Below, in pieces: positions 979 to 50,174 of a DNA stretch of 64,000 nucleotides. Within the stretch, counting starts at the first letter, position 1. The number at the start of each line of letters is the position of its first letter. This DNA is from a virus. Location: positions 48,940-112,939 of IMG/VR virus record IMGVR_UViG_3300044878_000082, one strand, 5' to 3'. The notes under the pieces are model-generated. The model had not been told where the DNA came from. It did not search any database and saw nothing but the letters and a program-made list of their open reading frames with translations. The position numbers and the translations under genes are program-made.

Positions 979-1034
979 ACGGCATAAAAGCAGGGGCTCG
1001 CACCCCTGCTTTTTTTTTTTGGCTTTTATGCCGT
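979..1034. terminator. Bidirectional terminator hairpin with GGCATA/TATGCC flanks
   Basis: AAAAGCAGGGG-CTCGCA-CCCCTGCT followed by a T run; outer 13-bp inverted repeat ACGGCATAAAAGC/GCTTTTATGCCGT; lies between convergent genes. Confidence 0.85.
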
Positions 1035-1035
1035 C

Positions 1036-3927
1036 TTAATGGTTGTCTTTCCGAGGACGCTTGCTGCGTTCCAAGAAGTCTGCCAGTGCACCACCACCGC
1101 CATTGGATTGACCCAAGTCGGCTTCTTCACTTACATCCTCCTCTTCTTCCTCAGCATCCGGTTCAGGCTCTTCTTCCTCTTCCTCAGAAGCGTCAGGTTC
1201 CTCCTCCCCTTCGGTGTCGTCTCCAGCGTCGGCATCATCACCGCCTCCTTCGTCGTCACCCATATCCCCTAGATCGTCATCTCCACCTAGGTCATCGTCG
1301 CCCATGTCATCATCGTCACCACCCATTCCGTCGTCATCGCCGGAAGAGTCGTCGCTGTAGTCATCACCGCCACTCGAACCACCACCTACTTCGATGTCCT
1401 TGTCAGCTTCCACAGCTTCAGTCAACTCGTTGCGTTTCTTTTGAGCTTCCGCAACTTGAATCATGTAACCTTGGATACTTGCCGCAATGGCATCAACGTG
1501 TTCGGTGTGAGTCGTGAGCAAGTCGATCATCGGGTGCTTCTCTTCCGTGAAGGTCACCAGATCAGCCAACTCAGGCATGACGTTGTTGTCACGCAACCAC
1601 TTACGTTTGAAGTGCGCCAACATGGCCGCCTTCACAACCTCTACCGAATCAGCTTGATCGCCCAACGAGGTACCATCGAGGAAGTCAGCGTTGAAGTATG
1701 CTTCGAGGCACTTCTCCAGACCTTCGATGTACTTGTCGTAAGCTTCCATCTGACGTTCCAGCGTAATGCTGTCTGGACGTGGTAAGGTTACGGTCAACGA
1801 GTTGATGAACTCTGCTACGATGGCATCAACATCCACGTTAACGTCGGTTGGGTCGTTGTCGTCAGCTTTCGCTGCGTCATCGGCCTTCTGCAACATCTTC
1901 TTGTTGGCTTCCACGGTCTTGCGGAGCTTGTCCATCAAGTTACCGGAGTTCAGCACGTACTTACGGATAAACTCACCCAACAGCGCGGTGAACTTGTCTT
2001 GGTACAACATCACTCGTTTGGTCAGCAACAGGTTCGAGGTCACAATAGAAGTAGCGAACTCAACGTTGTAGCCGTTGTCCACAGTCTCAGGCGACAAGCC
2101 CAAGGACATCAGGAACTGCTTCTTCAGGTTGTCTTCGAGGTCAGTGTTCGGTGCAGCTACTGAACGTTGACGGTCTTCAACTTCCATCCGAGTCTCAGGA
2201 TACGCAGGAGAACCCTGGACGTTCAAGTCAACGCCTGCGTTTTGCAGGAAGTTAACAATGTCCACAGGAGAAGACGCACCCAGTGGGTACGACGCCTGAC
2301 GAGTCTGAGTGTAGTTGTGGACGAGCTTCTCGACAGTACCAGACGGATCTGGGTCAGCCGGATCGAGTGTAATGTTCAGACCCGTGTGAGGGGTCGAGTT
2401 CTTGATAGCCGCCATGGTGTTGGACAGCATCATCATTACACGCAACGAAGCGAGGATCTTGTTGTCTTCGAGCAGCGACTTACCCACGCCGTAGCGGTTG
2501 TAGTCAAAGGCGAAGTACGTAACCAGTTCCGCAGGCACGAACAGCAACTGAGTGGACATGTTGGCAAAGGTACGCGCCAGCATGATACGGTACACTTCCA
2601 ACGGACGAGAGATCTCGATGTTGTCGGCGTAGATACCGTTTCGCAGACGAGCGATCAGGTCTTCCTCTACGAGCTGTGCGTAGATCCGTGTGGCTTCTTC
2701 GGTGTCGATGTCCGAACGTTGTTGGTAGCCTTCAACCGTACGTTGACCTTGGGAGATCAACTGACTGGCCATGTCCTTGTTGATGGACATGTTCATGTTC
2801 AGATCGTTGTAGTACTCAGACCGGTTAGCCTTCACCACTGGGTTGCCTTGTGGATCGAGAATCACAAAGTAGCCGATGTGTTCATCAGGCGAGCCTGGAA
2901 CGTGTACGGGGATGATCGACTCTGACGGCAGACGCATGACCAGTGGGTGACCCACGGTAGCACGTTTGATCTGCTCACCAGTCTTCACACCTACAACTGG
3001 ACGAGCCGCTTGCAGACGGGGACGGTAGAACGACATTTCGATGTCATCACGAGACACCTCATTGTTGGACTCCATACCAAAGCCTTGACGCTTAAAGGTA
3101 GCCGCCAAATGCTTACGACGTTGCAGCTCGTGGACGAACGGAGCCTTCAACAGATCCGGGTTGTCCGAGACCGAGATCTTGGTGTCAAACCCTTTCTTCG
3201 CCAGACGTGGACGCAGCATCCGGAAGTTCTGGGTGTAGTACTGGTTCATGTCCTCCATGGACACTTTCATGCGGTTCTTCGGTACGGACTTACCGTCTTC
3301 GAAGGTGGAGTCACCCAAAACGCCGATGGAGAAGTTGAACAGACCACTGGTGTCAACCCGGCCTTCCATACCTACACCGGCACGTTCCCCGTTGATGATT
3401 TCATCCACAGATGACTCTGGAATGATCATTACAGGGTAGGAGCCCTTCTTAAACAGGACGTCTGACAAAATACCCGGCAGTTGGGGATCTATTTTATAGA
3501 CTTTGGTGAAAAATTCTTCGACTACACTGAGGAGTACACCAGTGATCTCCCCCTTCAAAGAAGACTCGTTACAGACGTAGTTCAACTCCGTCGTAACCAT
3601 GTCTTTCGGCGAAAGGATACTGCTGACCAGAATCTGTTCTGCCAGCTCGGTATCTGGGAGCATCTGGTAAAGGTTTTCTGCATCGGTCACGTTACCGGCG
3701 GTAATGTCCGAGACTTTATTCAGATAACCAGTTGTGGGGATGTCGACGCCTCGTGAGGGACTGACGGAGTTGCTGTTCCCCAGTGACTCATTGTTCCTTA
3801 CAAGTTTGCTAACAACAGCGGTGGCTAGGGGCTTCTTCTTGAGCAGCCCGAGTTTCTCGAAACGCCGCTTTTGACTATCCAGCCCCAGCATTTGTAGCTG
3901 GTTAGAGTCAGAATCAGAACCAGACAT
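1036..3927 (-). CDS. Portal protein (phiKZ gp129-like) with long acidic C-terminal tail
   Basis: 963 aa; LPDTELAEQILVSSILSPKDM, HPLVMRLPSESIIPVHVPG and GLSPETVD segments recalled from phiKZ-like portals; divergent from a gp128-like gene; D/E/G-rich C-terminus. Confidence 0.8.
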   Translation of the reverse strand: MSGSDSDSNQLQMLGLDSQKRRFEKLGLLKKKPLATAVVSKLVRNNESLGNSNSVSPSRGVDIPTTGYLNKVSDITAGNVTDAENLYQMLPDTELAEQILVSSILSPKDMVTTELNYVCNESSLKGEITGVLLSVVEEFFTKVYKIDPQLPGILSDVLFKKGSYPVMIIPESSVDEIINGERAGVGMEGRVDTSGLFNFSIGVLGDSTFEDGKSVPKNRMKVSMEDMNQYYTQNFRMLRPRLAKKGFDTKISVSDNPDLLKAPFVHELQRRKHLAATFKRQGFGMESNNEVSRDDIEMSFYRPRLQAARPVVGVKTGEQIKRATVGHPLVMRLPSESIIPVHVPGSPDEHIGYFVILDPQGNPVVKANRSEYYNDLNMNMSINKDMASQLISQGQRTVEGYQQRSDIDTEEATRIYAQLVEEDLIARLRNGIYADNIEISRPLEVYRIMLARTFANMSTQLLFVPAELVTYFAFDYNRYGVGKSLLEDNKILASLRVMMMLSNTMAAIKNSTPHTGLNITLDPADPDPSGTVEKLVHNYTQTRQASYPLGASSPVDIVNFLQNAGVDLNVQGSPAYPETRMEVEDRQRSVAAPNTDLEDNLKKQFLMSLGLSPETVDNGYNVEFATSIVTSNLLLTKRVMLYQDKFTALLGEFIRKYVLNSGNLMDKLRKTVEANKKMLQKADDAAKADDNDPTDVNVDVDAIVAEFINSLTVTLPRPDSITLERQMEAYDKYIEGLEKCLEAYFNADFLDGTSLGDQADSVEVVKAAMLAHFKRKWLRDNNVMPELADLVTFTEEKHPMIDLLTTHTEHVDAIAASIQGYMIQVAEAQKKRNELTEAVEADKDIEVGGGSSGGDDYSDDSSGDDDGMGGDDDDMGDDDLGGDDDLGDMGDDEGGGDDADAGDDTEGEEEPDASEEEEEEPEPDAEEEEEDVSEEADLGQSNGGGGALADFLERSKRPRKDNH

Positions 3928-3974
3928 TATACAACTCCCAGTGACGTTTTAAAAGTTGATTGGAGGACCTAGAC

Positions 3975-6806
3975 GTGTCCAACGCTTACTATAGACTCTA
4001 CGTTGACTCCATGATTCTCATGGCGAAAACGATTGTCATCAAGAGTGAAGCGACTGCTAACGCGATGAACGTTGGGTTGAACGAACGGGGACTGGACGTT
4101 GATGAAAACGATCCAACCACCTGGAAGTACTACCTCAACCTGTCGGGACGTTATCATTCGACTGACACACCGATGACAGTGACGTCGTTGGATACTCGTG
4201 AAGAGATTCCATTCGATGTCCAAACGCTTTCAGTACATCGCAGAACTTTGCGGGACTACGCTTTCGGTACACGTTTCTATGAGCAATTGGTTAACCGGTA
4301 CCCTGAGCAGAGAGATCTGATTCACGGTATCTTGAATCCGGTGGACATTGACGTAGCGATAGCCGCACCAGATGGTAAGATCCTCTACATCGACCAGTTC
4401 CTGATCGAAGAGAACGAAACCAACTTGGTGAGCCAGATCCAAGACCGCATCGACGCATTCATGCTACGGTACAACGTGGCTGAGTTCGTTATGGTTGACG
4501 ACCTCTATCCAGCCGCTCACTTGGCGCTACTGTTCTTAAATTTACCCCTGTTCATTGAGGACGCACGACTCACGAACTGTCATACGGAACAGGTTCACAG
4601 TTTCCATATTCGACAGTACCTGGCCAGTCACGGGAGACTGGACACGTATATCTCCCACCTCGACAAAGAGCAGATGCTCTTCCTTTATAGGAACATTCTG
4701 TACATCCAGCGCAACGCTGGTAAACAGGATACCTTCGAGTGGTTGATCGACAAAATCATGACACACCGCATGTTACCGGTGGCTGAGTTCAATTTACATC
4801 ATAACGTAAGTGAGCAGCCGGACAACTTGTACCCGACGGTGGAAGTAAAGCGTGTTGACCTGACGCGCTTTAAGAGTGGCAACCCGATCGACACGTTCTC
4901 TGTGGAAGAGATCTGTAACCGAGCAGCGTTTGTAGCGCCCGGTAACTACGATCAACTCGACGCTACGATTGCTAAAGTCACCGACCAGATGACCCACAGC
5001 TCTAGTAACAAACTCAAGACCAAAATGCTTGAGTCTTCCGTCGTCGACCGCAGTAACGATTACGCCCTCACGTTCTCAGACGTGTTGCTGAACCACTGGC
5101 TGTACTTTGCTCAAGAAGGTTGGTACAAGACGATCATCTCGTTTGACAACCCCCTGACTGGCGATCAGTTGTGGTACAGCGCGAAAGATGCGTTCATCTT
5201 GTGGATCTACGCCCTCAACCGTTCTCTGGGTCAAGACCTGACTTGGGTTCCAAATCCTGACGCGGTGATGGTGCGTAAACAGTTCCTCCCGACCCGTGCT
5301 GACCTACGTAAGATCACCGAGTCCAAGCGTGTCCCTGACTCTGTACTGGATGCTTTGCTGAAAGACCAACCCGTCTTGAATGACTTGGTCTCGGTGGAAG
5401 CGTTCTACGACAAGTGTGTTCAGATCCACCATGCGTGGAAAGAGCACAACTGGATCTACACCAGTCAGGAACATTACGAGGCCCGTGGTCAAGCCGAAGC
5501 GGCTGCACTACACCTGTACCAGAACAAGAACTGTCAGCTCGATAACGGCACGCCGATTACCTACGACCAATGGTTGCGGGAACATCAGCTTGACGTCACC
5601 AACTTCTCTAAAGCGGAGTTTGAGCTGTTAGCGGCTAACCTGCTGGCACTATCCACCGGTACCAACTTACACGTCACAGTGAGCTTAGAAGAGCTTCAGG
5701 CCGCAATGATTCGCCTGATGACTCAACTGAGCAGTTACTCGGTGCAATTCCTTCGGGAGCTGCGCGGTACTAACATGATCTCACTGAACTGGTCGGCTAT
5801 TCGACAAGGTGACGATGACGGTCAGGGTGAGGGTCACATGTACGTGCACGAGGCTAACGTCTACGTGCAAAACATGGATGGTAAGGGTAGCCACTATCAA
5901 GCCGAGACGCTGGACAACGCTACGTTTGAAATCACGAACAGCGCTGGCGAACACGGCGACAGTGGCAAGTACGACAACACGGTTAACTTCGCGTCTGACG
6001 GTTACTCCAAGTTCAAGATGCGTTTGACAATCCCGACCATCTACTGTTCGGTACCGGATGTCAAACCGCTAGAGCTGGACGACGTCATCAACCAGCAAGC
6101 TATTCCGGAATACCTGTACCTGCGGATGGCACCACCGAACATCGGTAACTACATCCACATCAACACGGTTCTGACTGAAACTGACCTTGACGGGTTTGTG
6201 TACTCACCGACTCCGGTGATTCCATGGGCCGACGTAACGTTGAATGGTTTCGACTACCCACTGTTCGATGAGACCGCACTCAACCTGAAAGACTTGACCG
6301 GTTTCGACTACGACGTGATCCCTGTGGATAAGTTGTTGTTGGCTAACCAACTGAGTGGGTTCGAGTACGAGGTGTTGGGTGTTAAGCTGGCGCTGACCAA
6401 CTACCTAGGTGGGTTTGAATACGCCACCATCGACGGCAGACTGTCACTCTCGACGAACCAGTCTGGGTTTGACTACCGTGAGACACCGGTTCCTCCACTG
6501 GATCTGAACCTAGAGCTGAGTGGACTGGAATACAACCCGGTTGTGTTGGAGTTGGATCTGTTGGACGGCTTGGCGGGCTTGGAATATGAAGTTCCAGCCA
6601 AACGTCTGAACCTGAACACCAACCTCAACGGTTATGACTACCCAGTTGCTGATGATCCACTGTTCATCAACTTGGGCGACTTCGATTACATCCCTGATCT
6701 GTCTAACCTGATACTACGCACCCGCTTGCCGGGCTTGGTGTTGAGGCAGGATGATGTTCCGAAGATGCGTCTTAACGGCTTGGTGTTGAATCCGCCACTC
6801 GAGTAA
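3975..6806 (+). CDS. Virion structural protein (phiKZ gp128-like) with C-terminal LxG(F/L)xY repeats
   Basis: GTG at 3975 after GGAGGA; TWKYYLNLSGRYH, CHTEQVHSFHIRQYLASH and MTQLSSYSVQF motifs typical of the family. Confidence 0.8.
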   Translation: MSNAYYRLYVDSMILMAKTIVIKSEATANAMNVGLNERGLDVDENDPTTWKYYLNLSGRYHSTDTPMTVTSLDTREEIPFDVQTLSVHRRTLRDYAFGTRFYEQLVNRYPEQRDLIHGILNPVDIDVAIAAPDGKILYIDQFLIEENETNLVSQIQDRIDAFMLRYNVAEFVMVDDLYPAAHLALLFLNLPLFIEDARLTNCHTEQVHSFHIRQYLASHGRLDTYISHLDKEQMLFLYRNILYIQRNAGKQDTFEWLIDKIMTHRMLPVAEFNLHHNVSEQPDNLYPTVEVKRVDLTRFKSGNPIDTFSVEEICNRAAFVAPGNYDQLDATIAKVTDQMTHSSSNKLKTKMLESSVVDRSNDYALTFSDVLLNHWLYFAQEGWYKTIISFDNPLTGDQLWYSAKDAFILWIYALNRSLGQDLTWVPNPDAVMVRKQFLPTRADLRKITESKRVPDSVLDALLKDQPVLNDLVSVEAFYDKCVQIHHAWKEHNWIYTSQEHYEARGQAEAAALHLYQNKNCQLDNGTPITYDQWLREHQLDVTNFSKAEFELLAANLLALSTGTNLHVTVSLEELQAAMIRLMTQLSSYSVQFLRELRGTNMISLNWSAIRQGDDDGQGEGHMYVHEANVYVQNMDGKGSHYQAETLDNATFEITNSAGEHGDSGKYDNTVNFASDGYSKFKMRLTIPTIYCSVPDVKPLELDDVINQQAIPEYLYLRMAPPNIGNYIHINTVLTETDLDGFVYSPTPVIPWADVTLNGFDYPLFDETALNLKDLTGFDYDVIPVDKLLLANQLSGFEYEVLGVKLALTNYLGGFEYATIDGRLSLSTNQSGFDYRETPVPPLDLNLELSGLEYNPVVLELDLLDGLAGLEYEVPAKRLNLNTNLNGYDYPVADDPLFINLGDFDYIPDLSNLILRTRLPGLVLRQDDVPKMRLNGLVLNPPLE

Positions 6807-6814
6807 CTTACCGT

Positions 6815-6866
6815 GGACTCTCACACATCCTTTTAACCGAGGGTGTGTGGAGTCCTTTCTTTTTTT
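6815..6866 (+). terminator. Intrinsic terminator
   Basis: GGACTC-TCACACA...TGTGTG-GAGTCC stem followed by TTTCTTTTTT. Confidence 0.75.
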
Positions 6867-6884
6867 GTCTGAGGAGTGAAGATA

Positions 6885-8135: not shown

Positions 8136-8146
8136 GGAGTCTCACT

Positions 8147-8719: not shown

Positions 8720-8721
8720 AG

Positions 8722-8753
8722 TAGAGGGAGGCTTCGGCCTCCTTCTATGCCGT
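8722..8753 (+). terminator. Hairpin followed by TATGCCGT
   Basis: TAGAGGGAGGC-TTCG-GCCTCCTTCTA-TGCCGT; no U-tract. Confidence 0.75.
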
Positions 8754-8836
8754 TATGTACAGTTATACTGTGAACCAGATTAATTTAGTTGGCCCTGTGT
8801 CGACTCTGTCACTCCTTGTTGATAAAGGTTTTTCAA

Positions 8837-10572: not shown

Positions 10573-10989
10573 ATGAACATCGGAGGCGCGCTAGGGGTTC
10601 TCGGCTCTGAGGCTATCGGCACTAAGTCATGGGGAGGAATGATCGTCAAGATCTGCAACTTCCATCTGCCAGACGACAAGCTGGTAACTCTGACCGACAC
10701 TGGTGACGAAGTCATGGGTAAGGTTGTGGCCATGGATGATAAAGTCCAAGTCACGATTCTGACCATGGACATCGGTAACCTGGACGGCTTCGATCCAAGC
10801 TCATCCCGTGGGGTGAATGTGATGAAAGCCGGTGCGGTAATCATTGCGTTGGCTATGGTGGTGATTGGAGCGATGTCGACCTTTATGTACTCCAATGAAG
10901 AAGGTGGGATGGACGTCCAAGTCCTGAACTCAATCTTCAGTACCGGCATGGAGCTGGTGAAGTTGTTGCTCGGGGTACAAGGGGCATAA
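10573..10989 (+). CDS. Membrane protein with C-terminal TM helix
   Basis: AAGGGGAG RBS; AGAVIIALAMVVIGAMSTFM hydrophobic segment. Confidence 0.7.
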   Translation: MNIGGALGVLGSEAIGTKSWGGMIVKICNFHLPDDKLVTLTDTGDEVMGKVVAMDDKVQVTILTMDIGNLDGFDPSSSRGVNVMKAGAVIIALAMVVIGAMSTFMYSNEEGGMDVQVLNSIFSTGMELVKLLLGVQGA

Positions 10990-11021
10990 CGAGAGAGGGC
11001 TCACGCCCTCTCTCTATGCCG
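10983..11021. terminator. Bidirectional hairpin with GGCATA/TATGCC flanks
   Basis: GGCATAAC-GAGAGAGGGC-TCAC-GCCCTCTCTC-TATGCCG between convergent genes. Confidence 0.8.
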
Positions 11022-11025
11022 CCTG

Positions 11026-13307: not shown

Positions 13308-13347
13308 GCATAAGAGGAGGACCGAAGTCCTCCTCCTTTTATGCCGT
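13308..13347 (-). terminator. Hairpin with GCATA/TATGCC flanks
   Basis: GCATAA-GAGGAGGAC-CGAA-GTCCTCCTC-CTTTTATGCCGT after the adhesin gene. Confidence 0.8.
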
Positions 13348-21616: not shown

Positions 21617-21630
21617 TTCGAAATCCTTGT

Positions 21631-21653
21631 AAGAAAAGGGGCCCGAAGGCCCC
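21631..21653 (-). terminator. Intrinsic terminator
   Basis: Minus strand GGGGCC-TTCG-GGCCCC-TTTTCTT. Confidence 0.75.
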
Positions 21654-25312: not shown

Positions 25313-25342
25313 AGGGTTATCGGGGTTTCGCCCGATAACCCT
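25313..25342 (-). terminator. Terminator-like hairpin
   Basis: AGGGTTATCGGG-GTTTCG-CCCGATAACCCT immediately after the 778-aa fibre stop codon. Confidence 0.7.
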
Positions 25343-25347: not shown

Positions 25348-27684
25348 TTATCCGATTGCTTGAAGTGCTGCGGTTGCTGAGGTAAACGAGGTGGTCAGAG
25401 TGGTCACCAGAGTTTCGATGTCAGCAGTGTTACCCGCTACCGGAATGACTACAGAGCCAGCCGGTTGAGTGGTCATCACAGTCGCCGTTTTGTCGATAGT
25501 GATGTAGTCTTTACCTGACACTACAGTCAGGGTGGTCGTAGCGAACTTAGCGTTCGTTTTGTACCACAGACGGAACACGCCAGCCACTTTGGTGTACATC
25601 AGTTCCAAGTTGCTCACGTTACCCGACAGGATCGTTACCGACGCACCGAGGTCGACTGGGTCGATGTTGATGATACCGGTCACGCTCTGGTTGTTTGCAC
25701 TCACCAGACCGTTGAACATCACCGTCATGTCTTCGGTGTCACCGGCTTGCGGCGACGCCATCATGATTGGAACCCACTTGTACGTGGCATCGTTTGCCAG
25801 CACGTAGTTAGGCACCAGCAACTGACGGGTGTACGGAATCAAAATCTCAGCGTAGCTAACAACCTGATCCAGCGAACGACCTTCCAGTTGGTTGGCGTTA
25901 TCCACACCGGCAATCTGAATCGACTGCACGATTTCGTCCAACGTCTTACCAGCCAGCTTGAACGAGTTGGCTACACCGGCAGCGTCAATCTCGGCGTAGA
26001 TCTGGGCAAGCGAACGACCTTCGAGCTTGAAGCTGTCAGCCGCTTTCTGCGCTTGTGCAGCAGTCAGGGTTTGCTGGTAGGTGTGACCTTCCAACAGAGC
26101 CGAGTCCGCAGCTTGAGCAGTCTTGTCCAACTTGGCCAAGAACTTGGTGTCCAGTGTCCCCGAGGTGTACGTACCAACTTGAGCAGCCGTCACTGCGTGC
26201 GGGTTGTTCTTATCACCAACGTGGGCGGTGAAGTCCGTCAGAACCCATTCGTCGATGGCAGACTTAACCAACAGTGGGGTCATATAACGAATGTTACTGG
26301 TACCCGCTTGTGCTTCAGCGACGCTGGCAATCGAGTAGTTCTGAACGACGCTCAACCCAACCTGTGCTTTCGTCACAGCGTGCGGGTTGTTGTTGTCGGA
26401 CAAGTGAGCCCCGATAGAACCACTGGCCAACGCCTCGATCGCTTTACGGGTCATCAACGCCGTCATGTAGACCGTGTTGCTCAGACCTGCTTCTGCTTCG
26501 GTTTGTGTGGCGATCAGATAGTTCTGAACGTTACCCAAACCTACCTGAGCCTTGGTGGTCAAGTGAGGGTTGTTGGTCGCATTGATGTGCAAGTCCATCG
26601 AGTCTTTTACCAAGACCTGAATCTGCTTTGCAGTCATCAACGGGGTCATGTAACGGTCGTTACGAGAAGCAGCTTCTGCTTCCGCCACGTTCGCCAACGG
26701 CCAGTTCTCCACAGACCCCAAACCAACTTGTGCTTTGGTAGTGCTGTGTGGGTTGTTCAAGTCCGCCAAGTGCGTCGCCAACCCAGCATTCGCCAACGCA
26801 ACAATTGCTTGCTTGGTTTGCAATGGGGTCATGTACTTGTTGGAGACGGCACCCGCTTCGGCTTCGGCTTGGGTAGCCACACCGTAGTTCAGAACTGAAC
26901 CCAACCCGACCTGCGCCTTAGTTACGGCGTGTGGGTTGTTCAAGTCGTTGCGGTGTGTGTCCAGCAACGGAACCATGTAGGAGTCAACGAAGTTCTTGGT
27001 GCGAACAGGCGTCATGTAGCGAGTGTTCAGAGAACCCGCTTGGGCCTCGGAAATGTTCGCCAACGGGAAGTTCTGAACTTGGTCAAGACCGACTTGGTCT
27101 TTCGTTACCGAGTGAGGGTTGGCTTTGTCTGCAATGTGCTGGGCAAAGTTGCTGCCTGCCGAATCGCGGATAGCCACCGTCATGTCGTTCAGGATGGGGA
27201 TCAGATCATCCACACCTCTGAGGTCATCGAGGTCCCACTGGTGGTCGATCGGGGGGAACTGGTATGGAACATCAACCACTTCTTCCCACGTCGTGATTCG
27301 AGGGTTCGTTTGGGTATTCGTCAGACGGGTGAGGTCAGACGAGGTATCCAGAATCCAATCACCACCGATGGTTTGATAGCTGATCTCGAGAACGCCCGTG
27401 AGGGTTTTGTCGAGCATCGTAATCGAACCGTACACTCGCCGAGCCACGCCGTGTGAAGCTGCGTGGAAGTAGTGAGTGCAATGGTAATCCTTACCTTCGA
27501 CGAGGAGCTTACCCGATGGACGATGGATAACGCGCAACGAGTCCCGGAAGTAAGGGGCTTGCTTAGGGACTATGAAGTAAAAGTCCTTCCATGCCGGTGG
27601 AGACAGGACGTGTCGCTCGTTAGCAACAGCGTTCGATGTCGCCGAACCGGTAGGGTCAAAAGGGTAAGTATAGGTTTGCGCCAT
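25348..27684 (-). CDS. Tail fibre protein (phiKZ gp145/146-like) with NPH repeats
   Basis: YPFDPTG start after AGGAG; six NPH motifs; four S/AxxLEG-like repeats; C-terminal helix. Confidence 0.85.
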   Translation of the reverse strand: MAQTYTYPFDPTGSATSNAVANERHVLSPPAWKDFYFIVPKQAPYFRDSLRVIHRPSGKLLVEGKDYHCTHYFHAASHGVARRVYGSITMLDKTLTGVLEISYQTIGGDWILDTSSDLTRLTNTQTNPRITTWEEVVDVPYQFPPIDHQWDLDDLRGVDDLIPILNDMTVAIRDSAGSNFAQHIADKANPHSVTKDQVGLDQVQNFPLANISEAQAGSLNTRYMTPVRTKNFVDSYMVPLLDTHRNDLNNPHAVTKAQVGLGSVLNYGVATQAEAEAGAVSNKYMTPLQTKQAIVALANAGLATHLADLNNPHSTTKAQVGLGSVENWPLANVAEAEAASRNDRYMTPLMTAKQIQVLVKDSMDLHINATNNPHLTTKAQVGLGNVQNYLIATQTEAEAGLSNTVYMTALMTRKAIEALASGSIGAHLSDNNNPHAVTKAQVGLSVVQNYSIASVAEAQAGTSNIRYMTPLLVKSAIDEWVLTDFTAHVGDKNNPHAVTAAQVGTYTSGTLDTKFLAKLDKTAQAADSALLEGHTYQQTLTAAQAQKAADSFKLEGRSLAQIYAEIDAAGVANSFKLAGKTLDEIVQSIQIAGVDNANQLEGRSLDQVVSYAEILIPYTRQLLVPNYVLANDATYKWVPIMMASPQAGDTEDMTVMFNGLVSANNQSVTGIINIDPVDLGASVTILSGNVSNLELMYTKVAGVFRLWYKTNAKFATTTLTVVSGKDYITIDKTATVMTTQPAGSVVIPVAGNTADIETLVTTLTTSFTSATAALQAIG

Positions 27685-29032: not shown

Positions 29033-29071
29033 CGGCATACAGCGGGAGGCTTTCGGGCCTCCCGCTATGCG
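29032..29071. terminator. Bidirectional hairpin with GGCATA/TATGC flanks
   Basis: ACGGCATAC-AGCGGGAGGC-TTTCGG-GCCTCCCGCT-ATGCG between convergent genes. Confidence 0.8.
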
Positions 29072-33841: not shown

Positions 33842-34350
33842 GTAGAGCCTTCGTTCATGGTTACATTCCCCAGTCTGCGCTGTTCCAGTACCACCCGGCT
33901 TACGCACGCATGCGTGATGGGTTGTTCAAGGACCACCGCGACATGACCTTCAACCGAACCTTTGATGGTGAAAACCAACTTACGTTCGAGATGACCGTGA
34001 ACGCCCTGCTCCACATGTTTACTGAAGCGGGAGTTGTACTCCTGTTCAGTCAGCCGGAGATAGTGGCGGAGCAACTGCAACGTGCTAACGAATTCGCTTA
34101 CGAGCTTTGTATTGATCGTGGGCGTAATCAGTTTGACCTTCAAGTCACACTGGCCGTGCTGTACGTGCAGTTACTGTTCCCAGTGACGAACAACCGTCGT
34201 CAGGCTCGCCAGAAAGCCATGGAACGTTTCTTGACTCGAGACCTGCACGGTGTCTGGTCGGATGCTTTCATTGCCTGGTTGGTCGAGTTGCTATTCGTTC
34301 AAGAGTACGCCAACTCCCGTGGAATCACGTACTTCCGTTTCGTCGCATAA
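33838..34350 (+). CDS. Hypothetical protein
   Basis: GTGA overlap with the upstream stop, GGGAG RBS; ends at a hairpin. Confidence 0.6.
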   Translation: MSRAFVHGYIPQSALFQYHPAYARMRDGLFKDHRDMTFNRTFDGENQLTFEMTVNALLHMFTEAGVVLLFSQPEIVAEQLQRANEFAYELCIDRGRNQFDLQVTLAVLYVQLLFPVTNNRRQARQKAMERFLTRDLHGVWSDAFIAWLVELLFVQEYANSRGITYFRFVA

Positions 34351-34383
34351 AAGGAGAGGGCGCGAGCCCTCTCCCTATGCCGT
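34345..34383. terminator. Bidirectional hairpin with GCATA/TATGCC flanks
   Basis: GCATAAAA-GGAGAGGGC-GCGA-GCCCTCTCC-CTATGCCGT. Confidence 0.8.
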
Positions 34384-38843: not shown

Positions 38844-38893
38844 GCATAGCAGACTGACTACCTAGCCTCAGCCGGGTAGTCAGTCTTTATGAC
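38844..38893. terminator. Bidirectional hairpin with GCATA/TATGA flanks
   Basis: GCATAGC-AGACTGACTACC...GGTAGTCAGTCT-TTATGAC. Confidence 0.75.
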
Positions 38894-41632: not shown

Positions 41633-41671
41633 GCATAGCGGCCTAACCTTCGGGTTAGGCTTTTATGCCGT
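41633..41671 (+). terminator. Hairpin with GCATA/TATGCC flanks
   Basis: GCCTAACC-TTCG-GGTTAGGC-TTTTATGCCGT. Confidence 0.85.
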
Positions 41672-41677: not shown

Positions 41678-41714
41678 AAATAAAAAAATCTCAGATATAT
41701 ATTACTCCAGTGAA
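41678..41714 (+). promoter_or_regulatory. phiKZ-type early promoter
   Basis: A-tract followed by an exact TATATTAC at 41698-41705, directly after a terminator and before a small-gene operon. Confidence 0.75.
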
Positions 41715-42045: not shown

Positions 42046-42051
42046 ACAACC

Positions 42052-42702: not shown

Positions 42703-42725
42703 CCGCCCTCTTCGGAGGGCAACCC
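42703..42725 (+). repeat. 23-nt hairpin repeat, copy 2
   Basis: Identical to 42052-42074. Confidence 0.9.
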
Positions 42726-42755
42726 TAATCCTAAATCCTTAGAAGGAATTACACC

Positions 42756-43061: not shown

Positions 43062-43088
43062 ATCTAAAGTTCTGTGGAGAACGAAACT

Positions 43089-43301: not shown

Positions 43302-43337
43302 GACGCAACAATAATCTTAGGTTCTGTGGAGAACGAT

Positions 43338-43733: not shown

Positions 43734-43747
43734 GTTTAACCGATAAC

Positions 43748-43781
43748 AAATAGCCCTGCTTGTACAGAGGGTTATTTTTTT
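43748..43781 (+). terminator. Intrinsic terminator closing the early operon
   Basis: AAATAGCCCT...AGGGTTATTTTTTT. Confidence 0.75.
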
Positions 43782-43856
43782 GTCTCCAGTAATTCTTAAT
43801 ATAACGAGGTAACTATATAGGTGGTGTCCCCTTAACTAACTTTCGAGGCTTAAAGA

Positions 43857-44135
43857 ATGAATTCCTTTTTCGATTCAGTCGTACAATGCTTGAGTAAACA
43901 CAGTCGTGATGCGGCGACCAAGCTCCACCATCACACGCCGAGTGCGGCACTGAACGTTAGTCCCATTGCTCACATCAACAACTACCTGCGGGTTCAGTTG
44001 GGTATGTTGCCGTGCTCCACGGTTGCCGAACGTGAGTGCCTGATGGACGATGTCTCCGAACGCGAATGGCTACGCTTGTTCAACAAACACGTAGCTCCAA
44101 CGATTGCAGCTTACGGGTTGCCTGCCTGGAAATAA
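43857..44135 (+). CDS. Hypothetical protein (92 aa)
   Basis: GAGG upstream; first gene of the operon containing the RNAP subunit. Confidence 0.65.
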   Translation: MNSFFDSVVQCLSKHSRDAATKLHHHTPSAALNVSPIAHINNYLRVQLGMLPCSTVAERECLMDDVSEREWLRLFNKHVAPTIAAYGLPAWK

Positions 44136-44139
44136 GATC

Positions 44140-44739
44140 ATGAACACTGGTTCCCTGAGTCGTTTCTTTTTACCCAATGGTGGCGTTGACGTGTTTGCTT
44201 TGGCTGTCGAGTCTACCAGACTTTCTCAGAGGGGAATCGAGATGCCTGTTGGGTTTGACCAGACCTTGATGAACAGCGTCAGCAGTAACAGAGAATGTAC
44301 CGATGCAATGCCTTCGTTTGAAGTGCGGCATCAAACCCGTGGTCTTTACGACGTCGTACACTTGCTGGTGTATTGCCCAGACTTCGTAGGGGACATGGTG
44401 TCGATTGAGAACACCGTACTGGCTTTACTGAAAGACCTTGGCTGGGACCCAGAACTACCGCGTGTCGGTGCTGTTGTCCACATGGCCGGAGGAGACGGTT
44501 TCGTCAACGCAATGACGTACGTAGTTGCACGCCAGCGCTTACCCCACCACAGCGTATGGTTATCGAAGGATAATGGAGAAGCCCAAGAGGCGCTAGATCA
44601 CGAGTTGAAGCAATGTACCCACGCAGTCGAATTCACTTCACGACGTATGGCTACACAGTGCTACTCGCAGCAGTCTCACTTCGGTAATCTGGCCTACAAC
44701 CACGGACTGTCTTACCTTAAGTTCGTTTTGAATGAGTGA
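44140..44739 (+). CDS. Hypothetical protein
   Basis: ATG at 44140 just after the upstream stop. Confidence 0.6.
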   Translation: MNTGSLSRFFLPNGGVDVFALAVESTRLSQRGIEMPVGFDQTLMNSVSSNRECTDAMPSFEVRHQTRGLYDVVHLLVYCPDFVGDMVSIENTVLALLKDLGWDPELPRVGAVVHMAGGDGFVNAMTYVVARQRLPHHSVWLSKDNGEAQEALDHELKQCTHAVEFTSRRMATQCYSQQSHFGNLAYNHGLSYLKFVLNE

Positions 44740-44770
44740 TCCTATAGGGAACTAATTAGGATCACTTACC

Positions 44771-45442
44771 ATGGGCAATCGTAAAGCTGCTACCGATATG
44801 ATCTTGAAGTACATCGAGAAGATCTTACCCGGTAGCCCGAATACCGCGTTCTACGTGAAACGTTTGGCAGAGATGTCAGACGCAGAGTTCGCCAAGTTCA
44901 TGAAGAATCTGGAGGACGGGACTGAGATCCTGACCATCAAGACTCCGAACCTGTCGAAACAGAAGTTGGACTTACAACGCAACTTGGGAATCGCCAAGGA
45001 GCTGGGTCACGACTTCTTCCAATACCTGATCCTGACGGACCCGACTACCGGTGAGGTCTACAAGACTCCTGTGAAGTATCTGGTCATTGACGTTCCACTA
45101 CGGCGTCAGGTTCAATTGTTGCAGAGTAAAGCGACCATCCCTGAGAACAACAAGCACATCGACGAACTGTCTGGCCAATCCACCGGCCCCTCCAAAGGTT
45201 CGAAGATCTCCTTCCCTGAACTTCAGGTGTTGTTTGCTCAGGGTCTGGATTCAACGATCACCGAGCTGATCAAGTTCCGTGGTGGTGACGCCAAGGCCTT
45301 TAACGCCATGAACCGTGCCATCATCGAGAACGGTGGGGTGAGTATTGAATACCTCGCTCAGTTTGGTACCAAGGTTAAGTCGGTGACTACCCTGTCGACC
45401 CTGCTTAAAACCATCCACCTCGATAACACACTGGACAAGTAA
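44771..45442 (+). CDS. Virion RNA polymerase beta C-terminal subunit (phiKZ gp149-like)
   Basis: TDPTTG, RRQVQLLQSK, DELSGQ, SKGSKISFPELQVL (RpoB GQRFGEME equivalent) and ELIKFRGGD. Confidence 0.85.
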   Translation: MGNRKAATDMILKYIEKILPGSPNTAFYVKRLAEMSDAEFAKFMKNLEDGTEILTIKTPNLSKQKLDLQRNLGIAKELGHDFFQYLILTDPTTGEVYKTPVKYLVIDVPLRRQVQLLQSKATIPENNKHIDELSGQSTGPSKGSKISFPELQVLFAQGLDSTITELIKFRGGDAKAFNAMNRAIIENGGVSIEYLAQFGTKVKSVTTLSTLLKTIHLDNTLDK

Positions 45443-45918
45443 TGAAAGAATTGCTGAATGACATTACCGCCGCTCTGCGTCGTCGCTTCAATGCGATGCT
45501 GGATGACGAAGGTAAGGTGCATGTGGTGGAGTTTCTTTTTTTCCTCCAGAATGACATCCGTCTGAATCAGTTGGCCACCGAGACCCAGATCGAAGAACTG
45601 TGGGAACACATCCGTGACAAAGAGGCACTGGTTGACTTTGTCCACGGTGGTAGCCAACAAATGCGTTTCATCTTGGGTGACGAAGAGTGGAGTGCTCTGG
45701 TTGCTCGGTTGGCTGACGCATTCACGGTTAACTACGAGGCCAGTATCGAACTGTCCGAAGAGCAGACCATCGGTGAAGACCTGCTGGAGCGTATGGTTTC
45801 CAAACCTAACCTCACTGTCTTCTTGACTCACTATCCGTGGCTGGTGCTGGTACTACTGATCGACTTGTTGGATCTCGACGTTGTACTAGCCGGCCAGCGA
45901 CCTGAAGAGGCTGCGTAA
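45442..45918 (+). CDS. Hypothetical protein
   Basis: TAATG overlap with the upstream gene. Confidence 0.7.
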   Translation: MKELLNDITAALRRRFNAMLDDEGKVHVVEFLFFLQNDIRLNQLATETQIEELWEHIRDKEALVDFVHGGSQQMRFILGDEEWSALVARLADAFTVNYEASIELSEEQTIGEDLLERMVSKPNLTVFLTHYPWLVLVLLIDLLDLDVVLAGQRPEEAA

Positions 45919-46622
45919 TGGATCAACACATCCTCTGTGAGATTGATGCCCTGATTGACACCCGACTACCTTCCATAGCTCGGGTTAATCCAGACGCTGC
46001 GGCCAAGATGGTGAACGACTACTACTGGTTGCGTCTGTCTGACGACTTCGAGAAGTACACGGGTGGGTTGGTGACGAACGAGGCTTACAAAGCTCAGTAC
46101 GCCAAACGGGACGTTGACACACTACGGGGTGGGTTGGGCACAGAGATGTGTTTGTCTCTGACCAGCATCTTTGCAAACCTGTGTGACCAGCGGATCAACA
46201 CGCCTCTGGTAACAGACGTTAAGCTGACCATCAACTTCTATCCGTACATCTTGGCGGAAGAAGAGATCGAGGCTTTCCTCACCAGCATTGCCGTGTTCAC
46301 CAACAACGAAGTCAAGTTGGGCCATGTGTGGTTGTCGCCTGATGAAATCACTCCAGCGTTCTTGGATGCAGACTACTCAGCCTACATCCTCTACGACTTC
46401 AACAACTGGATGCGGTTTCAAGAGCAACGGTTTATCGACAAGGTAATTCCCAGCATCACCGTGTTTGCTCCGGCAATCTCTGCGGTGGGGGATTTCACTG
46501 AGGAAGACATTACAGTGGCTAACGTGGGTGTGGTGTCTCCCTTTGAGATGCTGGAGTTCACGAGCAAACTGTACATGAACCTTCAGTTGGTTGCGGTTGA
46601 CCAGTTCTGTCCTGTTCGGTAA
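45918..46622 (+). CDS. Conserved phiKZ-like protein (gp147-like)
   Basis: EIDALIDTRL and INFYPY.L motifs; TAATG overlap. Confidence 0.7.
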   Translation: MDQHILCEIDALIDTRLPSIARVNPDAAAKMVNDYYWLRLSDDFEKYTGGLVTNEAYKAQYAKRDVDTLRGGLGTEMCLSLTSIFANLCDQRINTPLVTDVKLTINFYPYILAEEEIEAFLTSIAVFTNNEVKLGHVWLSPDEITPAFLDADYSAYILYDFNNWMRFQEQRFIDKVIPSITVFAPAISAVGDFTEEDITVANVGVVSPFEMLEFTSKLYMNLQLVAVDQFCPVR

Positions 46623-46659
46623 CGGCATAAGGAGAGGCCACAAGGCCTCTCTCTATGAC
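46622..46659. terminator. Bidirectional hairpin with GGCATA/TATGA flanks
   Basis: ACGGCATAAG-GAGAGGCC-ACAA-GGCCTCTC-TCTATGAC. Confidence 0.75.
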
Positions 46660-46697
46660 CGTATTTAAAATTACGGTGTATGACGATACTATGTCGT

Positions 46698-47123
46698 TCA
46701 CTCGTCTTCGAAGTCTTTTACGAATTCGCCGAAGTTCATGTTCGCTGTACCGATGCTCATTTCCCCAGGAACTGGCTCTACCTTGGGTAGCTTGTGGAGT
46801 TCGCCGTCAACGTACTGCTCAATCAGCAACCCACCACCCACGGTGGAGTTACCGTTCTCGTACGGAATGTTCGAGCCGAACTTACGCACAACGTCAGCGA
46901 TTACACTGGCCACGTACTTATCAGAGTCAGCCAGTTTCTCTGCCGCACCGATTCGCTTGTTGCCCAAGGCCTGACGGTCCATGTCATTCCACAGGGTCAT
47001 TAACTGCCCTTGTGTATCAGTATCACTGGGCCAACCATTTTTCAACAACTCTGCCTCAAGAGCCTTACGTTGCTTTTGGGTAAACCGCAGAATGTTGTCG
47101 TCCGTTAAAAGGTCCTCAGACAT
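46698..47123 (-). CDS. Hypothetical protein (141 aa)
   Basis: GAGGAA RBS on the minus strand. Confidence 0.7.
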   Translation of the reverse strand: MSEDLLTDDNILRFTQKQRKALEAELLKNGWPSDTDTQGQLMTLWNDMDRQALGNKRIGAAEKLADSDKYVASVIADVVRKFGSNIPYENGNSTVGGGLLIEQYVDGELHKLPKVEPVPGEMSIGTANMNFGEFVKDFEDE

Positions 47124-47139
47124 GTTCAGTTCCTCGCTT

Positions 47140-47172
47140 AAAAAGATTACAAATGTATATTATTCCATTGAA
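47140..47172 (+). promoter_or_regulatory. Second early-type promoter candidate
   Basis: A-tract plus TATATTAT-TCCATTGAA, versus TATATTAC-TCCAGTGAA at 41698. Confidence 0.5.
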
Positions 47173-47178
47173 GCTAGT

Positions 47179-47769
47179 TTGAGAAAACTGCTTAGTGGAG
47201 TAGTTGGAAAGAAACCCACGTTGCAGAATCAAATCGAATCGGTGATCCTGAAGTATACAGTTGACGGAGTCGTTCATGCCGACGTACGTTACTGCATGGA
47301 TTTGGCACGGTTGGTTGATCCCGCACAACTCAAGCGATACACACCATTGATGGGACTTTCTATCAATGTCAGTGTGATCAACCCGACGGTACATTCCTTG
47401 TTACTGTTGCTGAACGAGTGTTCACGCATCGTACATGACAAAGGCTTAGTGCCTGAACGTATCCAGAAAAGCCGTAACCTACCCGGAAACGTGCGTGTTG
47501 TAAAACTGGACGACTACCTGTCTACGGACAAGGGTCATCAACTAGAACCTGTGGAGGTTTATAATGCCCTCAATCTACAACTGGAGTATCTCCAGAAAGC
47601 TTTACTCGTCGAATCCGCTGATTCCAAAAGTGGGGTCGATTACTACACCCGTCAATTCACGCACCTGATGGGTGATGTGGAAGCCGTAGTTAAAGCTTTC
47701 CTGGAGGTCCAAACGTATGCAAAACAAGGAACTCAATCAGGTACTCAGCTCCAAAACCAAAAGGGCTGA
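47179..47769 (+). CDS. Hypothetical protein (start uncertain)
   Basis: The track start at 46981 overlaps the opposite gene; in-frame TTG at 47179 chosen downstream of the promoter-like motif. Confidence 0.55.
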   Translation: MRKLLSGVVGKKPTLQNQIESVILKYTVDGVVHADVRYCMDLARLVDPAQLKRYTPLMGLSINVSVINPTVHSLLLLLNECSRIVHDKGLVPERIQKSRNLPGNVRVVKLDDYLSTDKGHQLEPVEVYNALNLQLEYLQKALLVESADSKSGVDYYTRQFTHLMGDVEAVVKAFLEVQTYAKQGTQSGTQLQNQKG

Positions 47770-48193
47770 GGAAGCCACTGGTACATTGAGCAAGCTGTTT
47801 CGACAGATCTTGAGTGATCAGAACTTCAGCATGAATACGTGGAACCGTAACATGCTGCGGTACCTGAAAGATCCCCGTAACCGTATCCCGCAAAACTCTC
47901 GAGACATGTCCTCAGCACGAGGCAACCTGTCGAAAGAACTCTTGAAGCGTTCCATGACTTGGGGCGTCTTTGAGAAAGCAATTCGATTCCTGAATCCGTG
48001 GCGTGTGCGGCTGACTCTGGAATTCGAATGGCGCTCTGGACTCAAGACTGAGTACTCGGCGATCATTCATGTGGGTGACAAGTCTGAGCAAGAGACTGAA
48101 GAATCCGCTATCCCCGTCAAGCATCCTGGCGTGACTGCTGCGAACCTCGATGAGGCTATCAAGGCAATCATGGACGCACACAAAGATACTTGA
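47717..48193 (+). CDS. Conserved basic hypothetical protein
   Basis: GGAGGT RBS; LSKLFRQIL and RGNLSKELL..SMTW.VF.K motifs. Confidence 0.7.
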   Translation: MQNKELNQVLSSKTKRAEEATGTLSKLFRQILSDQNFSMNTWNRNMLRYLKDPRNRIPQNSRDMSSARGNLSKELLKRSMTWGVFEKAIRFLNPWRVRLTLEFEWRSGLKTEYSAIIHVGDKSEQETEESAIPVKHPGVTAANLDEAIKAIMDAHKDT

Positions 48194-48200
48194 CTTCCTG

Positions 48201-48228
48201 GCCGCTTCTAACGAGGCGGCTTTATGCC
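48201..48228 (+). terminator. Hairpin followed by TTTATGCC
   Basis: GCCGCTTC-TAAC-GAGGCGGC-TTTATGCC. Confidence 0.65.
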
Positions 48229-48250
48229 CTAAAGAAAGAAGGTTTACAGA

Positions 48251-48757
48251 GTGGAAGACTGGCACCCGAAGTTCGATGGGATCACTCATCTGAACGTTTA
48301 CACCAAGGCGAAGACGCCACTGGGACTGAAGCTGACTAACTTCGCCCATGAACCTTTCCGGCACCCGTTGTTGGGTAAGTTCGAATCCTCCGAGGGACTC
48401 CATTACTTCCTGAAGACAGGACGCAAGTTTCAGGAGTTCCGTAACCTCTGGGGTTACAAAGCAAAAGAGATGGGCGTGAGTCTGTGTCGCGATCCTGCGA
48501 ACGTGACTTTCGATCTCCAGTTTGACTGGATGTTCCGTATCGGCCTAGTGGCCAAGATTACACAGAACCCAGAGCTGTTCGAGATGTTCATCGACAGCGA
48601 GCTACCGTTTACCCATTACTATTACTATGGAGACCCTGACTCCTTGGATAAATGTAAAGTGGTCAACGCCAAGGAAACAGGAACGTTGGTGACCGACTTG
48701 GAGGACATTCGTGCCTTCTTGAAAGCCGGTCATACTGGTTTGATTGGGAAGAAATAA
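48251..48757 (+). CDS. NADAR-like protein (putative ADP-ribosyl hydrolase)
   Basis: LTNFAHEPF, GKFESSEG...LK, AKEMG, AKITQNPEL and LEDIRAFL follow NADAR motif order. Confidence 0.65.
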   Translation: MEDWHPKFDGITHLNVYTKAKTPLGLKLTNFAHEPFRHPLLGKFESSEGLHYFLKTGRKFQEFRNLWGYKAKEMGVSLCRDPANVTFDLQFDWMFRIGLVAKITQNPELFEMFIDSELPFTHYYYYGDPDSLDKCKVVNAKETGTLVTDLEDIRAFLKAGHTGLIGKK

Positions 48758-48759
48758 AG

Positions 48760-49068
48760 ATGAGTTTGGAAACTGTTTTGAAGTGCCGTATTGTTGGTGA
48801 GGACACTCCGCTTCCTAAGCTGAATCCAACCGACATGACCTACTGGCGTAAAGTTAATGGCCGTACGTATCACGACCACTTGGTTCGCTTGGTACCACCG
48901 ACCATGGCTGGCTTTGAATTCCATCAGCCTGAAGACGTGCAAGATGGCGACTTCGTGCAGATCGGTAAGCTGTTGTACCCTCCTGCTGTGTTCATGCAGA
49001 AACTGGAAGCCGCTGGTTTCCTGAAGCTGTGTAAACTGGAGCGCCCAGTCGGCACCCAGCATTTCTAA
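48760..49068 (+). CDS. Hypothetical protein (102 aa)
   Basis: Starts 3 nt after the upstream stop and ends before a terminator. Confidence 0.6.
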   Translation: MSLETVLKCRIVGEDTPLPKLNPTDMTYWRKVNGRTYHDHLVRLVPPTMAGFEFHQPEDVQDGDFVQIGKLLYPPAVFMQKLEAAGFLKLCKLERPVGTQHF

Positions 49069-49077
49069 GCTCTACGA

Positions 49078-49110
49078 AAGAAGGAGGGGTTCGCCCCTTC
49101 TTTTTTTTTT
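49078..49110 (+). terminator. Intrinsic terminator
   Basis: AAGGAGGGG-TTCG-CCCCTTC followed by ten T. Confidence 0.85.
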
Positions 49111-49130
49111 GCCTCGTTTAGGAGATAACC

Positions 49131-50135
49131 GTGTCTACAGGTAAGATTGCAAGTTCTCTGTTTAAGTCTGGACCGGTGGATGCACTTCTAACGGTCGATA
49201 CCTACAAGCAGAAGGGTAACACCAACCTCAACTCGTTACCTGACGTTCTCAAGAACTTCAGTGCGGATGCGGCACAAACCATCCGTAAGAACCCAGCGAT
49301 GCTCAAACGCATTATGTCTGACGTTACGGCGGCTAAGAGTGGTCGTCTGTCGAAGGTTGATGCGTTGCTACGAATCGGTAAGAGCATGGGTTCCTCAGGT
49401 TTGATTAAGGGCCTGACGGGTACGATGCAGAACACGATGTTCTCGGCCTTTGAAGAGTTCGGGGTTTCGAAAGGAACCGTGGCTTCTATCATGGGGGCGA
49501 CGAAGACTGGGGTGAAAGCCTACATGTCGGGTAACTTGGACGACGTGAACGGACTGGCTAGTTTGGCTCGTCAGTTGACCGGTAAGTCTGATGTGTTCAG
49601 TGTGTTCGACTTGGCAGCAGAAGCAGCGATGGCTTCAACCATCATTGACTACGCGATCAGGTCGGGTGCTACTGATCTGATGCAGGAAGCGGTGGCTTCA
49701 GTGAGCGATCGGTCTGTCACCCTCCATGCGTTCAATAAGACGTATACGGTGGCCGTACTGTCGAGTAATATCGAAGCTTTGCGGATCATGGGTGAAACGA
49801 TGACGGCAGGGGGTGTGTTAAGCACGCTACCAGACGCCTGTAAGCGCATCCTGATGTTTTACAAGTTCGCCGATAAAACCACACCGGCTCAGTACGAAGA
49901 GCGCACCACCGAGCTGCTAGCGGTCTTGAATCACATCAACCCGAATTGGGCTAAGTACCAACGCAACGGGGAGATGATTGACAACCTCGAGATGTTCACT
50001 TACGCCTCAGCTAACGCCCTGACGTTACTCGGTCGTAAACCTGAATACGAGTTGCCAGTAATGATTGCTCCGTCACACAAAGCAGCGGCGTTACCGACAC
50101 TGATTCGTCAGTACTACCCTGGTGTCAATTTGTAA
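49131..50135 (+). CDS. Probable virion protein (334 aa)
   Basis: AGGAG RBS plus GTG; convergent with the tail genes. Confidence 0.6.
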   Translation: MSTGKIASSLFKSGPVDALLTVDTYKQKGNTNLNSLPDVLKNFSADAAQTIRKNPAMLKRIMSDVTAAKSGRLSKVDALLRIGKSMGSSGLIKGLTGTMQNTMFSAFEEFGVSKGTVASIMGATKTGVKAYMSGNLDDVNGLASLARQLTGKSDVFSVFDLAAEAAMASTIIDYAIRSGATDLMQEAVASVSDRSVTLHAFNKTYTVAVLSSNIEALRIMGETMTAGGVLSTLPDACKRILMFYKFADKTTPAQYEERTTELLAVLNHINPNWAKYQRNGEMIDNLEMFTYASANALTLLGRKPEYELPVMIAPSHKAAALPTLIRQYYPGVNL

Positions 50136-50137
50136 GC

Positions 50138-50174
50138 GCATAACGAGGCTCCCCGAAGGGAGCCTCTATGCCGT
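50138..50174. terminator. Bidirectional hairpin with GCATA/TATGCC flanks
   Basis: GCATAAC-GAGGCTCCC-CGAA-GGGAGCCTC-TATGCCGT. Confidence 0.85.

Follow-up and report, generated by a model that had tools for sequence, protein, structure and literature searches.

Hairpin-TATG elements at gene ends of an uncultivated phiKZ-like jumbo phage as probable intrinsic terminators of an already described type

RNA 3' ends have been mapped by Oxford Nanopore Technologies (ONT)-cappable-seq in the jumbo phages phiKZ and 201phi2-1. For phiKZ, 61 terminators were reported in which a stem-loop is followed by the consensus YTTATKYYGT (Putzeys et al., 2024, PMC10914365), and for 201phi2-1 a motif A, which resembles the phiKZ motif, was found in 59 terminators, often co-occurring with a motif B that lengthens the stem (PMC11512511). 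In a reporter, eight 201phi2-1 terminators of this type were active on the host polymerase as well. Here we describe elements of the same form, i.e., GC-rich hairpins at gene ends followed by TATG, in the right-hand 64 kb of the 112,939-bp IMG/VR viral contig IMGVR_UViG_3300044878_000082 (this 64-kb stretch is called the window and all positions refer to it unless stated otherwise). Eleven of these elements had been pointed out in a preliminary description as a candidate phage-specific RNA signal, together with the remark that the motif may already have been noticed in related genomes. This remark was right, as the motif was published for phiKZ and 201phi2-1 in 2024. Because RNA 3' ends have already been mapped in these two phages, the elements are of a known kind and the copies in the window are not a new RNA signal. 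We assign a probability of about 85% to the reading that they are intrinsic-type terminators, i.e., hairpin-dependent and probably factor-independent, typical of phiKZ-like jumbo phages.

Reading of the sequence and RNA folding placed a hairpin at each of the eleven positions named in the preliminary description (979, 8722, 10983, 13308, 29032, 34345, 38844, 41633, 46622, 48201, and 50138). The predicted folding energies range from -15.5 to -32.7 kcal/mol with z-scores of -3.2 to -8.3 relative to dinucleotide shuffles, and none of the shuffles was as stable. As had been noted, TATG follows within a few nucleotides of the stem (0–4 nt at ten of the eleven sites) and lies further out at site 979, where it is found beyond an 11-T run. 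The conserved word is longer than first noted: the tail reads (Y)(T)TATGCCGT with the extended consensus TATG-C-C-G-T, and the overall signal, a GC-rich hairpin followed by TTATGCCGT, fits the published consensus YTTATKYYGT exactly. A mirror CATA, mostly GCATA and extending up to ACGGCATA, is present upstream of the stem at nine of the eleven sites and corresponds to motif B of 201phi2-1; at two-sided sites the upstream ACGGCATA is the reverse complement of TATGCCGT. The hairpins had been described as mostly lacking a U-tract. This holds only in part: as a rule, 1–4 pyrimidines and then UAU come after the stem and form a short U/A-rich stretch. The canonical run of about six to eight U directly after the stem is not seen, as the tails have the form Y(0-4)-TATG; such a run is present only at the four or five T-tract sites, which form a separate group.

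The pattern described earlier is confirmed and lies far above chance. The word TATGCCGT occurs 15 times in the contig compared to 2.1 ± 1.2 times in shuffles, and 31 of the 274 TATG copies of the contig (11.3%) lie at most 4 nt after a hairpin compared to 0.9–3.0% for the eleven permutations of TATG. Moreover, perfect hairpins with a 3' TATG and a 5' CATA number eight in the contig and zero in 30 shuffles, and about 12 more copies of the element are found in the contig's left 49 kb, outside the window.

The published 3' ends were placed on the fetched genomes of phiKZ and 201phi2-1. All eight 201phi2-1 positions quoted in the text of the study lie 1–2 nt after the G of TATG and about 8 nt past the stem; at position 230,027 an A stands in place of the motif's G. 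For phiKZ, 76 of the 133 3' ends of the bioRxiv preprint (Table S4) were placed, and the ends adjoining TATG are found at -1 (8), +1 (8), and +2 (9) relative to the G. Over this part of the published ends, transcripts of the relatives stop anywhere from 1 nt ahead of the G to 2 nt beyond it, at a distance of about 6–9 nt from the stem. Judging from the identity of form, the copies in the window would mark RNA 3' ends like those in the relatives. The proposal that the element is a terminator read by the phage RNA polymerase (RNAP) is largely right, with the motif marking experimentally mapped 3' ends in phiKZ and 201phi2-1; however, other polymerases respond to the signal, too, because the eight 201phi2-1 elements also terminate the host RNAP.

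The affiliation of the contig, which has a completeness of 41% (CheckV) and a GC content of 52%, was assessed from its proteins. Because the large proteins of the window match PHROG families of virion structural proteins and the virion proteins are 30–44% identical to their counterparts in PhiPA3, Noxifer, Psa21, Xoo-sp14, phiKZ, and 201phi2-1, the source is by its sequence assigned to the phiKZ lineage of jumbo phages as a distant uncultivated member. The early-promoter box TATATTAC is common to the contig and phiKZ. A megablast search against the phage collection gave no match, and relatives were reached via proteins, resulting in five IMG/VR relatives (G001–G005) with 73–91% protein identity, two of them of about 238 kb. 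Among sequencing data, the stretch was listed for a sediment metagenome only and for no RNA run. No Rfam family reached its gathering score anywhere in the window.

Comparison of orthologous junctions in these five relatives revealed that the stems are replaced by fully compensated changes, with four different stems at the site near 50156, while the flanking GCATAA and TATGCCGT stay put. This comparison is independent support for the structure, and the GC-rich stem-loop is upheld by structure rather than by sequence. A multiple sequence alignment of 16 sites made with MAFFT (A1) was not structure-consistent and was replaced by an alignment of five sites of the same geometry (A2), from which the covariance model R1 was seeded. 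R1 gave 145 matches in 805 kb and misses the sites 38844, 41633, and 48201; since the model includes TATG and favors purine-rich 5' arms, its hits are a census and not an independent test. In the R1 alignment 97.1% of the cells are paired, 321 cells are changed on both sides compared to 70.8 in shuffles, and the covariation score amounts to 0.64 compared to 0.25 in shuffles and at most 0.13 in slid controls, statistics that lean towards structure because the alignment was fitted to the model. When bidirectional terminators are compared between orthologs, many loops turn out to be exactly reverse-complemented although the arms are retained (11001–11004, 29051–29056, and 34362–34365 compared with G001, G002, and G005), and the palindromes therefore invert during evolution.

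To describe the spread of the element among phages, the fraction of copies starting 0–4 nt after a perfect hairpin was determined for each of the 256 tetramers. TATG ranked first in all nine phiKZ-lineage genomes tested, i.e., the contig, the two near-complete relatives G001 and G002, phiKZ, 201phi2-1, Xoo-sp14, Goslar, RSL2, and Deimos-Minion, with P-values between 2e-3 and 6e-53 and a weak signal in Goslar. In contrast, it ranked 160th in T4 and 53rd in the Bacillus phage AR9, which has related split RNAPs and a different late promoter. The extended consensus TATG-Y-Y-G-T is found throughout the phiKZ-lineage genomes tested. Furthermore, TATG is about half as frequent in the 84 coding sequences of the contig as predicted by synonymous-codon shuffles, with 131 copies in sense (251 expected, z -10) and 36 copies in antisense (77 expected, z -5.7); other TA-containing words show observed/expected ratios of 0.7–1.1. 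Based on a second-order Markov expectation, TATG/CATA is among the 4–13 most depleted tetramers in all nine phiKZ-lineage genomes, compared to rank 83 in T4 and rank 31 in AR9.

For the mechanism of termination, we suggest that the GC-rich hairpin would form in the nascent RNA, that the polymerase would stop in the short weak stretch (Y)UUAU-G-Y-Y, and that the released RNA would have its end between -1 and +2 relative to the G, about 6–9 nt past the stem. At convergent junctions, the palindrome ACGGCATA ... TATGCCGT would present a hairpin followed by TATGCCGT on each strand, so that one element might stop transcription from both directions. A U at -1 and a G at +1 after a hairpin may constitute a hairpin-stabilized pause, offsetting the short U-run. 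For E. coli, it was shown that hairpin-dependent pauses last longer when the non-template +1G contacts the core recognition pocket and that termination is lowered in a pocket mutant (PMC4499132, PMC6336406). In the case of the non-virion RNAP (nvRNAP), the pause may be reinforced by the beta-lobe pocket binding non-template TATG at late promoters; for the phiKZ nvRNAP, the beta-like GP123 binds the non-template TATG under the beta-lobe (IUCrJ 2026). If such a contact were formed during elongation, it would bring the active site to UAU/G, the step at which the 3' ends lie. That TATG in the terminator is more than a degenerate U-tract, and that one and the same nvRNAP beta-lobe pocket reads it on the non-template strand as promoter word and as sequence-specific trigger of pausing and termination, is a tentative idea, to which we give rather less than even odds by a wide step. 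If true, it would explain that the motif is confined to the lineage with TATG promoters and absent in AR9 and T4, that coding sequences avoid TATG in sense as well as in antisense, and that the bases just past the RNA 3' end are conserved. The shared TATG, the family-wide depletion, and the absence in AR9 offer a cheap and concrete test of one pocket word for initiation and termination. In the literature searched, we found no statement that the element extends across the family, that AR9 differs in this respect, that TATG is depleted, or that the beta-lobe might be involved; these are increments on a known system, as the conserved terminator motif itself is already in the literature.

Several points weigh against the terminator reading. 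The mapped RNA 3' ends come from phiKZ and 201phi2-1 only, and the function of the copies in the window is assigned by analogy. The nanopore 3' ends of the relatives are accurate to about 2 nt, and the RNA may be trimmed after its release. The CCGT beyond the mapped end is conserved, which is unexplained by a purely RNA-hairpin model. Moreover, the acting enzyme could be the virion RNAP, the non-virion RNAP, or both, factor independence is deduced only from a predictor and the host-polymerase reporter, and the pause and the beta-lobe step are what we infer from the other systems.

Among the alternatives, the elements might serve as a tag for 3'-end processing, stability, or export, in which a phage protein recognizes the hairpin with the UAUGCC tail and then cleaves the RNA, shields it, or labels it for leaving the phage nucleus. 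This would fit with a sequence conservation of TATGCCGT that exceeds the needs of a hairpin terminator and with the finding that, of the genomes tested, only those of the nucleus-forming phiKZ lineage have the motif. However, neither a candidate binding protein nor evidence for cleavage was found, the elements terminate the host RNAP without infection, the distance between stem and mapped ends is the canonical one, and the conserved CCGT lies partly past the mapped 3' end and would therefore be absent from the mature RNA. The ideas of 3'-processing and of a messenger RNA export tag, both raised in the preliminary description, are left with no supporting evidence, and we consider them improbable.

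Slightly lower still do we rate a terminator that doubles as late promoter, in which the G of TATG would be the +1 start and the polymerase would stop and then restart for the next gene. The phiKZ late promoter has TATG as its core and starts transcription at the G (Yakunina 2015), and at co-directional junctions the motif lies 14–43 nt before the next start codon, a plausible leader length. Start sites in phiKZ itself argue against it over the part of the published set that was covered: none of the 59 start sites (of the 149 in the bioRxiv preprint, Table S3) is found within 5 nt of the G at any of the 34 hairpin-TATG sites in the same 100 kb, so that a start at the G of TATG was seen at none of the 34. 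Six of these 59 start sites lie 6–40 nt downstream of hairpin-TATG sites, and the nearest one uses a separate second TATG 6 nt further on. In addition, the model late promoter P119L of phiKZ has no upstream hairpin, and a promoter at any of the seven convergent junctions could produce nothing but antisense RNA into the facing gene.

A DNA-level palindrome, at which a protein of replication, recombination, or packaging would bind or a cruciform would be formed, would suit the many copies that are perfect interrupted palindromes and the loops reverse-complemented between orthologs, which show that the DNA palindrome can invert, but it is hardly credible given that the half-site spacing of two-sided copies varies from 24 to about 40 nt, that any palindrome is known to give rise to loop inversion, that the copies are found after stop codons and only at gene ends, and that all eight one-sided copies of the contig lie in the sense direction of the flanking genes, which favors a transcription-coupled role over a symmetric DNA site.

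Read as terminators, the elements can be sorted by the type of junction, based on our own crude gene calls. These calls agree with the earlier assignment: the motif is found on both strands at each of the seven convergent junctions and at 13308 and 41633, and on the sense strand alone at 8722 and 48201. The first putative bidirectional terminator at a convergent junction spans 979–1034, with a hairpin at 986–1013 (-26.7 kcal/mol, z -5.7); on the minus strand TATGCCGT follows directly after the stem, and on the plus strand the 11-T run is followed by TATGCCGT at 1027, the element being conserved in G001 and G002. The second one (10983–11022) has a hairpin at 10991–11014 between GGCATA at 10983 and TATGCC at 11015 (-32.7 kcal/mol, z -7.7), and its loop is reverse-complemented in orthologs. 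In the element at 29034–29071, the hairpin 29041–29066 stands between GGCATA at 29034 and TATGCG at 29066 (-26.8 kcal/mol, z -4.6), and G001, G002, and G005 show other stems and flipped loops. The element at 34345–34383 has its hairpin at 34353–34374 and TATGCCGT at 34376 (-25.0 kcal/mol, z -4.8), with orthologs present. A long imperfect hairpin (38851–38886) followed by TATGAC at 38888 is found in the element at 38844–38893 (-28.7 kcal/mol, z -5.6), which is nearly invariant in four relatives. At 46624–46662, the hairpin 46632–46651 is followed by TATGACCGT at 46654 (-27.6 kcal/mol, z -8.3), and the stems are replaced in G003, G004, and G005. Right after this terminator, a second, AT-rich hairpin with TATGAC is located at 46657–46684 and is conserved in G001 and G002; two further TATG copies lie within 20 nt after it. 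The last convergent element (50138–50174) has its hairpin at 50145–50166 and TATGCCGT at 50167 (-23.6 kcal/mol, z -4.8), with four different stems among six genomes and almost unchanged flanks.

Two elements at co-directional junctions are predicted to act as unidirectional terminators in sense on the plus strand. At 8721–8753, the hairpin core 8727–8742 is followed by TATGCCGT at 8746–8753 (-20.7 kcal/mol, z -5.5), and G001 and G002 have retained the motif after a different stem. A second TATG at 8754 directly follows this tail (8746–8757 for both together) and is not conserved in G001 and G002; the layout is like that of the phiKZ start site P049, in which the second TATG is the mapped start. 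At 48200–48228, TATGCC is found at 48223 (-15.5 kcal/mol, z -3.2), and the element is kept in five relatives with stem changes. A two-sided element between two minus-strand genes (13308–13347) consists of the hairpin 13314–13335 with GCATA at 13308 and TATGCCGT at 13340 (-23.5 kcal/mol, z -4.7). The other two-sided putative terminator (41633–41671), with the hairpin 41641–41660 and TATGCCGT at 41664 (-22.5 kcal/mol, z -5.1), is followed by an A-run and then by an early-promoter-like TATATTAC box near 41690. The same layout of terminator, A-run, and TATATTAC early-promoter box is present after the major head gene of phiKZ.

Strongly conserved boxes of this early-promoter-like type, with both flanks conserved as well, are found in the window at about 41685–41700 and, in contig numbering, at 14326, 18713, 27090, 37647, 43382, and 96095. 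In the contig and in all five relatives the TATATTAC boxes are always intergenic, point into small-gene operons, and match the early-promoter box of phiKZ.

Two further hairpins of the window differ in their tails. A perfect 12-bp hairpin at 25313–25342 is located past a minus-strand gene that has its end at 25348. Only at a distance of about 14 nt from the stem is it followed, on this strand, by a T-rich stretch and a TATG, and the hairpin may be a variant terminator. A 9-bp GC-rich hairpin at 52163–52184, without T-run or TATG, lies in the 6-nt gap of two minus-strand virion genes and overlaps the ends of both.

Ordinary T-tract terminators without TATG, reported earlier at 6815, 21631 (minus strand), 43748, and 49078, were recovered as well, and two classes coexist in the window. 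They are located at 6815–6867 on the plus strand, with the T-tract also in G001 and G002, at 21626–21653 on the minus strand, serving minus-strand genes, at 43748–43782 on the plus strand, closing the small-gene operon begun at the early-promoter-like box near 41690 and with the T-tract in four relatives, and at 49078–49113 on the plus strand, with a 10-T run and then GCC and the T-tract in all five relatives. The T-runs at 49104–49113, 6856–6867, and 43775–43782 end with G, then C or T, then C, resembling the G-C-C after TAT, and the two terminator classes may differ mainly by a single A. We also considered a division of labor, with T-tract terminators for early operons of the virion RNAP and TATG terminators for later genes, but rejected it as a clean partition. 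Downstream of 55 early-promoter boxes, the terminator that comes first is of the T-tract type in 16 cases and of the TATG type in 39, compared to 46 and 193 overall. This excess is weak, the counts are not independent, and both the repeated scoring of orthologs and the crudeness of the detector inflate it.

In practice, a hairpin followed by TATGCCGT can be used to mark the ends of transcription units in uncultivated chimalliviruses. Standard terminator finders need a U-run and therefore miss most such sites.

Compared to the terminators of phiKZ and 201phi2-1, the elements share the GC-rich stem-loop followed by YTTATKYYGT, the location at gene ends, the bidirectional arrangement at convergent genes, and the upstream mirror that lengthens the stem. 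They differ in that the tail is almost fixed as TATGCCGT in a genome of 52% GC, whereas phiKZ mostly has TATGTTGT or TTATT, and in that the 5' arms are often purine-rich, whereas those of phiKZ and 201phi2-1 are pyrimidine-rich; the element described here is known from its sequence alone. With the canonical Rho-independent terminator they have in common the GC-rich hairpin, a 3' end about 6–9 nt past the stem in the relatives, and activity with the host RNAP in the 201phi2-1 reporter, and a separate true T-tract class coexists in the same genome. However, the run of six to eight U is replaced by 1–4 pyrimidines and UAU-G-C-C with a conserved G and conserved next bases. The late promoter of phiKZ uses the same tetranucleotide TATG in the non-template strand, but P119L is free of an upstream hairpin and the mapped starts, for the portion of the published table used here, are off the hairpin-TATG sites. 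Finally, the his-type hairpin-dependent pause, which has a pyrimidine at -1 and a non-template G at +1 in the core recognition pocket (PMC4499132, PMC6336406), shares the RNA hairpin, the U at the 3' end, and the G as next base; it is a pause of the E. coli RNAP and not a release, and its features may carry over to the phage enzymes.

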